A stretch of 64,000 nucleotides of DNA from Candidatus Binataceae bacterium (GTDB taxonomy: Bacteria; Desulfobacterota; Binatia; Binatales; Binataceae): assembly GCA_015478645.1 (NCBI GenBank), contig JADMIL010000006.1, forward strand, positions 29,609 through 93,608, given 5' to 3'. The position numbers were made by a program, and so were the translations under genes. Below the pieces are notes generated by a model. The model did not search any database. It was not told where the DNA came from and saw only the letters and a program-made list of their open reading frames with translations. Positions 3,378 to 54,764 of this stretch are shown here, in pieces (positions within the stretch are counted from its first letter, which is position 1; each line of letters starts with the position of its first letter).

Positions 3378-3414
3378 ATAAAATGAAGAGGGCGCCCATC
3401 GCGGACGCCCTCTT
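3378..3414 (-). terminator. Rho-independent terminator of the Met/His-rich lipoprotein gene
   Basis: 9-bp stem AAGAGGGCG (3386-3394) / CGCCCTCTT (3406-3414) with an 11-nt loop. On the minus strand it is followed by CATTTTAT, and it sits 27 nt downstream of the stop at 3441. Confidence 0.6.
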
Positions 3415-3440
3415 GCCGAATAGTCAGTTGCGACGAGCTA

Positions 3441-3866
3441 TCAGGAAGCCGCCGGAGCAGGAGCCTCCGGTGCCGGCGCTGCCGCCGCAGGAGCCTCAGC
3501 CCCAGGCGCCATCGCCGCCGCGTGATGATGCATGTGCATATGATGATGCATGTGCATATGGTGATGCATATGCATTTCGCCGCCTGAATCGGTCTTGGCC
3601 GCAATCGCTTCCGCACGATCGGCAGCCGCCTTGGCATCGGCTGCCGATTGCTCAACCTTGCTCGCCGAAGCCTGCGCCGAAGCCGCAGCCTGCTGTGCAG
3701 TCTGGCTTGCCGCTTCAGCGCGCTGCGCAGCCGAATCGGCCTGCGTAGCAGCCGCCTGCGCCGACTGGACGTCCTGGTTCGGACTGCAACCGGCCATCAA
3801 TGAAAGGGCGAACACAGCCCCCGCAAGTCCAATCAGTTTAGTCGATTTCGAGATTAACCCTTCCAT
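3441..3866 (-). CDS. Lpp-like Ala/Gln-rich lipoprotein with C-terminal (MHMHHH)x3 Met/His-rich tail
   Basis: ATG 3864-3866 is preceded by AAGGAGGA. Lipobox LSLMAGC. The coiled-coil-like segment AQAAATQADSAAQRAEAASQTAQQAAASAQ is followed by GGEMHMHHHMHMHHHMHMHHH and an Ala/Pro tail. Confidence 0.8.
   Translation of the reverse strand: MEGLISKSTKLIGLAGAVFALSLMAGCSPNQDVQSAQAAATQADSAAQRAEAASQTAQQAAASAQASASKVEQSAADAKAAADRAEAIAAKTDSGGEMHMHHHMHMHHHMHMHHHAAAMAPGAEAPAAAAPAPEAPAPAAS
3522..3575. repeat. In-frame 18-bp x3 tandem repeat encoding MHMHHH units
   Basis: gtgatgatgcatgtgcat / atgatgatgcatgtgcat / atggtgatgcatatgcat, read directly from the sequence. Confidence 0.9.
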
Positions 3867-51969: not shown

Positions 51970-53223
51970 ATGGCCGACAAACCGCGCATGCTTGAAGGTT
52001 TCCGCGTTCTGGATTTCACCCAATTCGTCGCTGGTCCGACCTGCACCCGGCTGCTCGCCGAGATGGGCGCCGAGGTGGTCAAACTCGAACTCGCACCCGA
52101 GGGTGATCGGGTCCGCGGCGGCGGGCTTAAGCCGATGAAGCCCGAGCTCAAGGATTCCAGCCACAGCACCTATTACATGCAGCACGACCACAGCAAGCTC
52201 AGCCTGGCGATCGATATGAAGAAGCCCGGCGCGCGCGATCTGATCATGTCGATGCTGCCGAAGTTCGACGTGCTGGTCGAAAATTTCGCCCCCGGCGTGA
52301 TCAAGCGCCTGGGCTTCTCCTACGAGGACGTGAAAAAGGCTAATCCGCAGATCATCATGTGCTCGATCTCGATGGCCGGGCAGACCGGACCGCTATCGGA
52401 TAAGGCCGGCTACGATTATATCGGGCAGGCCTACGCCGGCATCACCGACGGTATCGGCGAGCTCGATCGCGCGCCGTCGGTCACCACCATGGCGATCGGC
52501 GACGTCTCGACCGGCGTGGCGGCCGCGATGGCGGTGGGTTTCGCGCTGATTCATCGCGAGCGCACCGGCGAAGGCCAATACCTCGACGCCTCGCTGCTCG
52601 ACACCTATTTCCATATGCATGAGGCCAACGTGCCGCAGGTTTCGCTGCGCGGCGAAAAGTACCGGCCGACGCGCAACGGCTCACAGCATCCGGGCGGCGG
52701 TCCGACCGGCATCTATCATTACCGCGGCGAGCAGTACGTCTATCTGTGCGTGCCGACGGCGCATCAGTGGGTCCAGCTCTGCCGCGCGATGGGGATGCCC
52801 GATCTGGCGACCGATCCGCGCTTCAAGCATGCGCGCGGCCGGCGCGACAACAACGCCGAGCTGCAGCGGATTATCGAGGACTGGCTCGCCACGCACGACC
52901 AGCGCGACGACGCGATCGCGGCGCTGGACAAAGAGCGCGTGCCTTGCGCTCCCGTGCTGACGGTCAACGAGGCGGTCAACCATCCGCATCACAACGAACG
53001 CAAGACCGTGCGCTGGATCGCAGATCCGCTGCTCGGCAAGGTCGCGATTCCCGCCGTGCCGGTCAAGTTTTCGGCGTGGCCCGATCGCATGGAACTGCGT
53101 TCGGCGCGCCTGGGCGAGGACAACGAGCGCGTGCTGCACGATTTTGCCGGACTGTCGAAGGAGCAGATCGAGAAGCTCTACGGCGAGGGCGTGCTGGTCC
53201 GGGACGCGACGCTGCCCAAGTAG
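51970..53223 (+). CDS. Family III CoA-transferase (CaiB/BaiF)
   Basis: ATG 51970 after GGGGAGG. MLEGFRVLDFTQFVAGPTCTRLLAEMGAEVVKLE...DVLVENFAPGV...AGYDYIGQAYAG. Confidence 0.88.
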   Translation: MADKPRMLEGFRVLDFTQFVAGPTCTRLLAEMGAEVVKLELAPEGDRVRGGGLKPMKPELKDSSHSTYYMQHDHSKLSLAIDMKKPGARDLIMSMLPKFDVLVENFAPGVIKRLGFSYEDVKKANPQIIMCSISMAGQTGPLSDKAGYDYIGQAYAGITDGIGELDRAPSVTTMAIGDVSTGVAAAMAVGFALIHRERTGEGQYLDASLLDTYFHMHEANVPQVSLRGEKYRPTRNGSQHPGGGPTGIYHYRGEQYVYLCVPTAHQWVQLCRAMGMPDLATDPRFKHARGRRDNNAELQRIIEDWLATHDQRDDAIAALDKERVPCAPVLTVNEAVNHPHHNERKTVRWIADPLLGKVAIPAVPVKFSAWPDRMELRSARLGEDNERVLHDFAGLSKEQIEKLYGEGVLVRDATLPK

Positions 53224-53280
53224 CGGCTACCGGCCGGCCGACTGACTATTCGTTTCGGCTGACGACTGACTAATCAAACA

Positions 53281-53320
53281 GGGGCGGTGCGGGTTCTCCC
53301 GCTCCGCCCCTGACTTTTTT
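53281..53320 (+). terminator. Rho-independent terminator after the CoA-transferase gene
   Basis: GGGGCGGTGCGGG ttctc CCGCTCCGCCCC hairpin followed by TGACTTTTTT. Confidence 0.7.
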
Positions 53321-53321
53321 C

Positions 53322-53372
53322 CGCCGGGACGCGCGCGGCGCCGCGGTTAGCGCCGCCTCTTGCCGCCGGACG
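53322..53372. repeat. 51-bp direct repeat, left copy (duplicate of the 3' end of the MaoC gene at 54000)
   Basis: CGCCGGGACGCGCGCGGCGCCGCGGTTAGCGCCGCCtCTTGCCGCCGGACG matches 53975-54025 at 50 of 51 positions. Confidence 0.92.
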
Positions 53373-53389
53373 AACGGCATCATGACCCG

Positions 53390-53701
53390 TCAGGCCGCAT
53401 GCCCGCGCGGTTGCACCTGCCGTTCGACCTCCTCTTCGAGTTCTCCGCGCGTGCTTTCAAGGTCGTAATGGGCCTGAAGGTTGATCCAGAATTCCGGACC
53501 AGTGCCAAAGTAGCGTCCCAGGCGCAGCGCGGTGTCGGGGCTGATACCGCGCTCGCCCTGTACGATGGCGTAGAGCCGGTTGCTCGGTACTCGCAGCGCG
53601 AGCCCGAGCGCATTGATCGTCATGCCGAGCGGCTTGAGAAATTCCTCGTTCAGGATCTCGCCCGGAGGGGCCGGCGGAAGCTGCCGTTTGTTTCGCGCCA
53701 T
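53390..53701 (-). CDS. higA: HigA-family antitoxin (XRE HTH)
   Basis: PPAPPGEILNEEFLKPLGMTINALGLALRVPSNRLYAIVQGERGISPDTALRLGRYFGTGPEFWINLQAHYDL. Confidence 0.82.
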   Translation of the reverse strand: MARNKRQLPPAPPGEILNEEFLKPLGMTINALGLALRVPSNRLYAIVQGERGISPDTALRLGRYFGTGPEFWINLQAHYDLESTRGELEEEVERQVQPRGHAA

Positions 53702-53720
53702 TGTCCGCACTCCATGATGC

Positions 53721-53900
53721 TCAAGCGTAATGATTGGTGATCTCGACGTCGTATGCGTCGGGCGGAGTCCATCGAAAGCAAAGCCGCCACTTATCGTTGA
53801 TGCGCAAGCTGTGCTGGCCGCTGCGATCGCCCGTCAGCTTCTCCAGCTTGTTACCCGGCACCGCGACGAGCACCGCCAGCGATAGAGCCGCGTCGAGCAT
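53721..53900 (-). pseudogene. higB: N-terminally truncated HigB/RelE-family toxin remnant (59 codons)
   Basis: My translation: MLDAALSLAVLVAVPGNKLEKLTGDRSGQHSLRINDKWRLCFRWTPPDAYDVEITNHYA. This matches the C-terminal two thirds of ~92-aa HigB toxins. TAA lies two codons upstream of the ATG. Below the track's 60-aa cutoff. Confidence 0.6.
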
Positions 53901-53974
53901 CTGAAGTTAAACGTCAAGGCACCCGCAAATACAGTCCGCAGTCCTGGATTTCCAGGTTGCGGCCACCACCGGTT

Positions 53975-54025
53975 CGCCGGGACGCGCGCGGCGCCGCGGT
54001 TAGCGCCGCCGCTTGCCGCCGGACG
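53975..54025. repeat. 51-bp direct repeat, right copy (native 3' end and stop of the MaoC gene)
   Basis: Same sequence as 53322-53372 with one mismatch. Contains the stop codon (54000-54002) and the last 8 codons (...PSGGKRRR). Confidence 0.92.
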
Positions 54026-54764
54026 GCCGCTGGCCTTTGGACGGCTTGGCGAGCTTGAGCAGTTTGCCCGGTTTGGCGCGATTGACGGTTTTGACCGATT
54101 TCAGTTTGCGCCCGCCCGCGGCCGCTTTGACGGCTTTCAGCGCGACCGATTTTTTCGCCACCGGCAGCATCCGCATCACCGCGCGCGCGCCCGACCGCGA
54201 CGATCCGACCGACTTCATCCGCGTCCGCGCCGGCGGCGCCGCGGCCTCGTCCTCAAGCTCGAGTCCGGCGGTGGTAAACGATCGCTTCTTGATCAGCGCG
54301 CGCCGCTCGCCCTCGAAGACCGTCTCGCCGCGCTGATTCACACCCCAGTGCTTGAAGTGCACTTCGCCGACTTCGCGATGGCCGCGCAGTACGTCCGCAC
54401 TATCGTTTTTGCCCAGCACCTCGGTGAACGCGTAGAGCGTGTCGCCGTGGATCACCGAGATGCGAAAGCGGACCTGGTCGAGCGCGACCTCTTCGACCGC
54501 CTGCTCGCCCGTATCCTGCATCGCGAGGCCGATGACCAGCGAGGCGGTGACGCCGCCGAAGGTGATGCGATGTTTTTGCGCGGCGACGCGTTCGGCCAGA
54601 TCCTCGTTGAAATGAAGCTGCGCGGTATTCAGCACGAGATTGGTCAGCAGGACGTTTTCGAGCGCCTCCATGGTCTTGCCGCGCGCATGCTCATAGACGT
54701 CGCCGACGATGAAATCCTCGTAGTAATTGCCGCGCCCGGTCAGCGCCGCCGCGTCAATACTCAT
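54000..54764 (-). CDS. MaoC-like (hot-dog) dehydratase with ~75-aa Lys/Arg/Ala-rich histone-H1-like C-terminal tail
   Basis: Start at ATG 54762-54764 (MSIDAAALTGRGNYYEDFIVGDVYEH...), an ATGA overlap with the ACAD stop. Tail KKSVALKAVKAAAGGRKLKSVKTVNRAKPGKLLKLAKPSKGQRPSGGKRRR. Confidence 0.8.
   Translation of the reverse strand: MSIDAAALTGRGNYYEDFIVGDVYEHARGKTMEALENVLLTNLVLNTAQLHFNEDLAERVAAQKHRITFGGVTASLVIGLAMQDTGEQAVEEVALDQVRFRISVIHGDTLYAFTEVLGKNDSADVLRGHREVGEVHFKHWGVNQRGETVFEGERRALIKKRSFTTAGLELEDEAAAPPARTRMKSVGSSRSGARAVMRMLPVAKKSVALKAVKAAAGGRKLKSVKTVNRAKPGKLLKLAKPSKGQRPSGGKRRR

Follow-up and report, generated by a model that had tools for sequence, protein, structure and literature searches.

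A decayed higBA toxin–antitoxin cassette within a duplicated maoC gene end in Binataceae

Introduction

How does a two-gene toxin–antitoxin (TA) cassette come to lie between two copies of a host gene end when no gene for moving it is found nearby? The question is raised by a 64,000-nt stretch of a Candidatus Binataceae bacterium genome (contig JADMIL010000006.1; hereafter the window), in which positions 53322-54025 carry the remains of a higBA pair at the 3' end of a gene for a MaoC-type hydratase. The original prediction, made from the letters alone, described a decayed cassette that had been cleanly inserted at the gene end and was bracketed by a 51-bp duplication. The movement of two-gene addiction modules without a transposase or integrase is poorly understood, and we compared the locus with its counterparts in relatives. 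Our best explanation overall, held with moderate confidence, is a decayed chromosomal higBA in an inherited, gene-converting bracket that would have originated by recombinase-free re-insertion and lost its toxin first.

Strands and coordinates are those of the whole window. The window genome (G000) is a 98-contig, 3.06-Mb, 92%-complete metagenome-derived assembly; other G numbers denote genus genomes, L numbers contigs of relatives, and WIN the window itself. Contigs of the closest lineage were obtained through MaoC searches (L051, L052, L053, L056, L057, and L058) and a CoA-transferase search (L061). A close relative found by MaoC search had a MaoC 94% identical over its full length and flanking DNA 95.9% identical. 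Several inferences below are drawn from little sequence: higA offers 77 synonymous sites, and the repeat, R, spans 55 nt.

An inherited, recombining bracket

The bracketed locus is made up as follows.

53322-53376, minus strand: R_left, an orphan duplicate of the end of the MaoC gene (9 codons, TAA at 53347-53349, and 25 nt of 3' untranslated region, 3'UTR)
53377-53389, minus strand: a 13-nt spacer that separates R_left from the higA stop; the window, L051, and L057 have its joint ...GGACGGACG|GCATC in common
53390-53701, minus strand: higA, an intact 103-aa helix-turn-helix (HTH) antitoxin gene, now an orphan (TIGR02607, HTH_3)
53721-53906, minus strand: higB remnant, codons 34-94 plus stop; the open reading frame (ORF) from the ATG at 53900 is 59 aa
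53906/53907: junction of a 167-nt (±1 nt) deletion, from comparison with L051
53907-53974, minus strand: native MaoC 3'UTR running into a surviving -35 region (TTGACG at 53912-53917, then TTTAAC)
53975-54029, minus strand: R_right, the functional MaoC gene end (last 9 codons, TAA stop at 54000-54002, and 25 nt of 3'UTR)

The predicted 51-bp duplication was confirmed, with 53322-53372 and 53975-54025 identical at 50/51 positions and the single mismatch synonymous (AGG vs CGG, both Arg). Comparison with relatives extended the duplicated block by 4 nt to 55 nt (53322-53376 and 53975-54029, 52/55 identical), the repeat we call R. There were exactly two copies of R in the 3.06-Mb assembly (blastn-short, E about 1e-21 to 1e-23), and all remaining matches were shorter than 27 nt, GC-rich, and attributable to chance. 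Exact-pattern scans for the R core and the 3'UTR stretch found none in metagenome contigs and only chance matches, in unrelated phyla, in genome contigs. A dispersed repeat of the repetitive extragenic palindromic (REP) or miniature inverted-repeat transposable element (MITE) kind was rejected, R and the 68-nt stretch at 53907-53974 each being unique in the genome.

The two copies differ in role, much as first described. R_left is an orphan that begins 1 nt beyond the T6 run of the neighboring CoA-transferase terminator, and R_right completes MaoC, so that the host gene remains intact through the duplication of its end. The MaoC stop codon (54000-54002) closes a Lys/Ala/Arg-rich tail ending in KRRR. 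This tail was found in 10/11 genus genomes checked, ending in a basic run (KKRR before the stop in six), and we therefore take the right copy to be the native one. The 598–602 nt between the repeats hold higA, the higB remnant, and untranslated sequence only.

Both R copies were also present in L051, L052, L056, L061, L057, and L058, six contigs that come from assemblies of six different samples or bins. Three sub-lineages (window, L051-type, and L057-type) have the same inner joint ...GGACGGACG|GCATC; the bracket was therefore inherited and is older than their split (flank synonymous divergence, dS, about 0.16). The sharing of the bracket with close relatives also means that it is not an assembly artefact. 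An artefact or chance repeat, a thought that a 98-contig metagenome-derived assembly invites, has negligible probability given the six other contigs, a 52/55 match unique in 3 Mb, and the consideration that a path through a de Bruijn graph should be unable to make the joint of R and spacer without reads containing it.

At four sites in R, both copies agree within a genome and differ between WIN and L051. When L054, which has one copy, serves as outgroup, each lineage has a derived state for at least one of these changes. Since changes specific to a lineage are found in both of its copies, the R copies undergo concerted evolution, that is, gene conversion between copies 650–760 nt apart. Crossing-over between the same copies would remove the cassette exactly and leave maoC whole.

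Toxin-first decay

The original reading of higA as an intact HigA-type HTH antitoxin gene agreed with the profile scores (TIGR02607 equivalog, 99.8 bits, cut-off 47.7; HTH_3, 25.9 bits, cut-off 23). The window HigA had 92–93% amino-acid identity to HigA of G005 and L034, and an exact-sequence look-up returned no record. The neighboring frame, proposed to be a C-terminal HigB remnant of about 59 codons, was recognized as such. The ORF at 53721-53900 on the minus strand matches positions 35-86 of the 91 in PF05015 (E 1.9e-8), the remnant scores 35.1 bits against that family (cut-off 27), and it aligns with codons 34-94 of intact HigB in G005 and L051. A TAA does lie two codons 5' of the remnant's ATG, and no alternative start yields a full-length HigB in the window, codons 1-33 being deleted. 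The pair has the reversed gene order, toxin then antitoxin, with the higB remnant stop (53721) 19 nt ahead of the higA ATG (53701) on the same strand, and this order is the same in L051, G005, L034, and L039. Intact source cassettes, the search for which had been suggested, were found in these same four relatives with a 94-aa HigB. That of G005 scored 49.3 bits over positions 2-88 of PF05015 and matched PDB 6F8S_B (E 5e-20).

Comparison with L051 indicated how the toxin was inactivated and the antitoxin retained. The 167-nt deletion removed 67 nt comprising the -10 box (TACGAT), the operator TCGTAGTACGA, and the 5' untranslated region with the ribosome-binding site, together with 100 nt of higB (codons 1-33), and left higA whole. 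In L051, L052, L056, and L061 HigB is whole (94 aa, starting at GTG), and the promoter of this L051 type reads TTGACG-17 nt-TACGAT with the palindrome TCGTAGTACGA spanning the -10 box. The complete toxin ORF and the promoter/operator are thus present in L051-type relatives and missing in the window, whose cassette is by its sequence a decayed member of the higBA family and no working system. A truncated toxin in L051 was considered and rejected, since the gene caller's 64-aa product reflects a misplaced start codon and the frame that opens with GTG encodes 94 aa.

The sequence upstream of the junction belongs to the site. TTGACGTTTAAC in the window is identical in L051, after which the window jumps to higB codon 34, and the whole 68-nt stretch at 53907-53974 is common to L057 and L058 and unique in the genome. 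We rejected foreign filler for these 68 nt, which are native maoC 3'UTR plus the -35 box; this native identity comes from close relatives only, alignments with distant relatives giving p 0.15–0.37.

L057 and L058 have a separate deletion of ~325 nt that ends at about higB codon 84, with ACGT microhomology, and spares higA. It is a second, independent toxin kill. Both deletions begin within 4 nt of each other, right after the -35 box (TTGACGTTTA/AC) and at the edge of the operator palindrome (window 53906-53917, L057 around 3384-3404, L051 4315-4340), and this common start may mark either a hot spot for mutation or an end-point favored by selection. L058 has the MaoC protein and deletion junction of L057, yet its higA differs at 3 sites from L051 and at 9 from L057, so that its locus looks like a recombination mosaic.

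Toxin-first decay recurs in the family, in which orphan higA and damaged higB genes are common. L046, L047, L049, and L050 have higA without a partner, and in L043 and L045 higB is broken; damaged copies are frameshifted or truncated. There was no other HigB in the window assembly, which is 92%-complete. Two more HigA-like genes occur in G000 (C93:32742-33020 and C61:59613-59897, 47% and 28% identity), with no HigB of this family detectable near either.

The site in relatives

The cassette lies between the following flanking features.

51970-53223, plus strand: family III CoA-transferase gene, left flank (PF02515, E 2e-103), convergent with the cassette
53279-53320: terminator of the CoA-transferase gene, an inverted repeat with hairpin at 53279-53312 (15-bp arms, 4-nt loop) and a T6 run
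54000-54764, minus strand: MaoC/mesaconyl-CoA-hydratase-type gene, right flank (PF19315, E 8e-22)

CoA-transferase orthologues of 417 aa were present in every relative, and an equivalent terminator hairpin was found in G005, G006, G004, L034, L054, and L062. The cassette is wedged between the MaoC stop and this terminator, which maoC otherwise shares with the convergent CoA-transferase gene.

The empty site that an insertion would predict exists. In L054, L055, L060, and L063 the terminator, an equivalent but strongly diverged hairpin, lies about 30–31 nt from the maoC stop. Cassette-free relatives that carried both copies would have counted against insertion; these four have a single gene end. 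Their layout, terminator and then gene end, is the one kept by R_left, and the coding half of R aligned with the L054 target at 24/29 and 23/29 positions for the two copies. Cassette bearers are spread over every major branch of the flank tree of the genus. The original statement that no integrase or transposase is present also stood, with no recombinase among the genes within ±3.5 kb at the locus in about 10 relatives.

Cassettes have also been replaced at this site. L062 is the closest flank relative outside the window lineage (CoA-transferase dS 0.26), and its higA has a dS of 0.70 to the window against the flank value of 0.26 (Fisher p 0.0003). L062 also differs in the spacer from terminator to higA and lacks R_left. 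The cassette of L039 is likewise discordant, being 2–3 times more diverged than its flanks. Because the L062 and L039 cassettes are more diverged than their flanks, cassette alleles appear to have been swapped at the maoC gene end at least twice. A search for R_left in G005, L034, and L062 gave no significant similarity. In L062 (2460-2490) a 21-nt stretch beside the higA stop resembles the reverse complement of the L051 joint of R_left and spacer (of 21 aligned columns 19 match and 2 do not, with a gap of 2 nt; p 0.008 uncorrected for 8 tests), a resemblance that is possibly due to chance.

Origin of the bracket

The history that we think comes nearest, giving it just short of even weight, is that recombination among close relatives brought a cassette allele back to a site that stood empty. 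No integrase or transposase would have been needed to form the bracket. The cassette of a close relative would have been put back into an empty allele, consisting of terminator and gene end, by one homologous crossover in or beside maoC and one illegitimate joint 9 codons inside the recipient's gene end. The recipient's gene end would then have been kept as R_left and the donor's brought in as R_right, and the two copies would now permit RecA-type gene conversion and precise excision. The toxin would have gone first, its loss being harmless and loss of the antitoxin first being lethal. The later steps, gene conversion and then toxin-killing deletions that spared higA, are well supported whatever the origin of the bracket.

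Several observations weigh against this account. In the alignment with the L054 target, the 3'UTR half of R had no significant match (p 0.67). At the same gene end, higBA occurs without any duplication in G005, G006, G004, L034, L039, and L062; among these unbracketed forms G005 and L034 are intact, G006 and G004 have deletion scars, and L039 has a rearranged operon. The window cassette is as diverged from G005 and L034 as are its flanks (higA/flank dS ratio 0.7–1.35, not significant), and in an approximately unbiased (AU) test the cassette was compatible with the topology of the flanks (p 0.32). A resident cassette, passed on vertically and given R_left by a local rearrangement, therefore accounts for these data just as well. 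The empty-site lineage L054, with a flank dS of 0.54, is more distant than L062 (0.26) and therefore does not represent the direct pre-insertion state, and L062 itself, the closest flank relative, holds a different allele and no empty site. Neither outer joint shows microhomology, the 167-nt deletion was seen in a single metagenome-derived assembly only, and no sigma-70 promoter was predicted for higA in 53150-54150.

A clean insertion, as originally proposed, thus stands in part. Empty sites exist and MaoC was kept whole, but distant relatives have unbracketed higBA at the same gene end. The reading is plausible, and the cassette may have first arrived without leaving this bracket, because unbracketed higBA occurs elsewhere and the window cassette is as diverged as its flanks. 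Two more specific histories were set aside. A recent import from a G005-like donor was suggested by cassette identity of 87.1% vs 83.8% for the flanks, but this was not significant (AU p 0.32; dS ratio 0.73, p 0.27). A duplication older than the L054 split, with L054 as the product of excision between the R copies, was weakened by L062, which is closer by its flanks yet lacks R_left.

The strongest rival, a real possibility that we lean against, is that the cassette was resident and vertically inherited and that R_left is a secondary, lineage-specific copy of the MaoC end. R_left would then be no insertion footprint and the empty sites would be independent deletions; the copy could have come from tandem duplication of the cassette plus gene end followed by deletion of the left cassette, or from a template switch in replication or repair. 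The presence of cassette bearers on every major branch of the flank tree agrees with this, the AU test leaves vertical descent standing, and dS ratios to G005 and L034 are near 1. The right side (MaoC stop, 3'UTR, and -35 box) is native and contiguous, and an 18-nt match between the terminator-higA spacers of L062 and L034 (15/18, p 0.02) hints at an older unbracketed state. Yet such a history would take two or three events without homology, or else a rare copying from a template about 650 nt away, and leaves unaccounted for the position of R_left at the terminator T-run, roughly where the gene end lies at empty sites. No Ku gene was found in the window genome, which makes classical end-joining with templated patches unlikely, and the discordance of L062 and L039 shows that cassettes move in and out of the site.

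Direct repeats that duplicate a gene 3' end are typical of tyrosine-recombinase elements, and R could on that ground be an att site, with the cassette a remnant or cis-mobilizable rider of an integrase island at the maoC 3' end, in the manner of a cis-mobilizable element (CIME). R in the window does hold a perfect 12-bp palindrome, CGCGGCGCCGCG. We consider this very improbable, as the palindrome is not conserved in L051 or L057, no integrase was found at the locus in about 10 relatives, R occurs nowhere else in the genome, and the 598–602 nt insert is all cassette or native UTR. A recombinase acting on R in trans is rated just as low.

Fate of the orphan antitoxin

Under the preferred history of re-insertion and toxin-first loss, higA was left behind as an orphan. 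Because its own promoter was lost and sigma-70 prediction over 53150-54150 returned no site, higA is probably transcribed by read-through from the maoC operon. In L057 (around 3425-3455) and at the equivalent place in L058, the short sequence ahead of the orphan higA has become ...TTGAATATAATGGAG..., in which an exact TATAAT lies 12 nt from the ATG. The corresponding letters are GCATCATGG in the window and ACATAGTGG in L051. The TATAAT in L057/L058 may be a new promoter for the orphan antitoxin.

Whether the orphan HigA has been kept by selection, either for an anti-addiction role when higBA elements enter or because it was recruited as an HTH regulator, seems doubtful to us. For such selection speak an intact higA in three toxin-less or toxin-dead arrangements (window, L057, and L058), the recurrence of orphan higA across the family, a long-term ratio of nonsynonymous to synonymous divergence (dN/dS) of 0.05–0.06, and an experimental precedent for anti-addiction with ccd (PMC2654758). 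However, dN/dS on recent branches rises to 0.25 (vs L051), a value from small numbers, and the window HigA has the unique changes I8L and H12P and that of L057 the change L43P in the HTH region; the raised dN/dS and the unique changes fit relaxed constraint at the sequence level. The loss of higA's own promoter and the lack of any remaining HigB homologue in the assembly to neutralize also count against selection, and the asymmetry in lethality by itself predicts that the toxin is lost first.

Comparison with known systems

HigBA type II TA systems. The window locus has the family scores of a HigBA type II system, in which HigB is an mRNA interferase of the RelE fold (PF05015) and HigA an HTH protein (TIGR02607). 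The toxin gene lies 5' of the antitoxin gene, and relatives have a 94-aa toxin, a 103-aa antitoxin, and a palindrome over the -10 box. The nearest solved toxin is 6F8S chain B, deposited as 'Putative Killer protein'. The window differs in that its toxin lacks residues 1-33, the operon promoter and operator are gone, and the antitoxin is the sole complete gene.

Long target duplications. Insertion with long target duplication was deduced by comparing genomes and described for restriction-modification complexes (Nobusato et al. 2000, as cited in Furuta, Abe & Kobayashi 2010, PMC2853133). According to the citing paper, such inserts are <20 kb and have no mobility gene, their flanking repeats are >30 bp, unique in the genome, and often span a stop codon, and a relative has the empty site; it gives the mechanism for restriction-modification modules as unknown (PMC2853133). 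The window locus likewise holds a post-segregational-killing module far below 20 kb (598–602 nt) with no mobility gene, between repeats of 55 nt (52/55) that are unique and span the maoC stop, with maoC intact and single-copy empty sites in relatives, of which the L054 target aligns significantly with the coding half of R only. Most of these features being present, recombinase-free insertion with long target duplication appears by analogy to be the best precedent. The window differs in having a TA pair as cargo, unbracketed cassettes at the same gene end, a nearest flank relative with another allele instead of an empty site, and concerted repeats. A literature search found no paper that describes this architecture for TA modules.

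Decaying TA islets. In E. coli the ccdO157 islet occupies the interval from folA to apaH (Mine et al. 2009, as cited in PMC2654758); the anti-addiction model comes from Saavedra De Bast et al. 2008, cited in the same paper. Like ccdO157, the window locus is a small TA islet with a fixed intergenic position, which relatives have in full, in decayed form, or not at all, and the toxin is the part that degenerates. It differs in that its decay proceeded through deletions whose upstream ends nearly coincide, directly behind the -35 box.

Elements integrated at att sites. Cis-mobilizable and integrase elements also have a direct repeat that duplicates a gene 3' end and leaves the gene intact. At the window locus, by contrast, there is neither an integrase in cis nor a core or palindrome conserved in the repeat, and the genome has only this one site.

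Flanking genes and other repeats

The Lys/Ala/Arg-rich tail of MaoC (54000-54260 in the window) is 70–100 aa and of variable length among relatives; it is missing in L039 and truncated in G010. The hydratase as a whole is 254 aa in the window and 263 aa in the closest relatives. In five species (G007, on L025 at 1187-1993, G009, G002, G011, and G012) a 268-aa DUF169 gene (PF02596) fills the place between maoC and the terminator instead of higBA, and in G001 a His/Asp/Tyr-rich, lipoprotein-like ORF of 97 aa does so. The maoC-terminator interval is a variable slot between conserved flanks.

Elsewhere in G000, a dispersed palindromic repeat family with the core ...TGTCATTCTGAGCGCAGCGAAGAATCCCGGATCC... 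occurs at C55:55909, C87:36427, C96:30037, C91:32287, C85:39537, and C37:103041, while C61 and C94 carry another such family (AACCGCGGCTTCGCAGACTCGCCCGCACCCCATGCC...). The two families resemble MITE or REP elements and have no relation to R. A 256-nt perfect direct repeat lies at C91:6961-7216, on another contig than the window, with its second copy +615 nt away.

Implications

The Binataceae locus is a chromosomal TA islet in decay, and its architecture is one that earlier work has described for restriction-modification modules. It leaves current views standing, as a well-documented instance and not a new principle, and is a clean example of toxin-first decay with an orphan antitoxin left behind. 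To those views it adds recombining repeats that undergo concerted evolution, allele swapping at a fixed gene end, and a graded series of natural alleles of one site: intact, Δ167, Δ325, swapped, and empty. We tentatively suggest, as an idea more likely to fail than to hold, that TA cassettes spread and leave without a recombinase of their own by carrying or creating a host gene-end duplicate of ~50 nt, which would serve as a RecA substrate for conversion, excision, and re-entry. If true, they would use the same route as the long target duplication proposed for restriction-modification modules.

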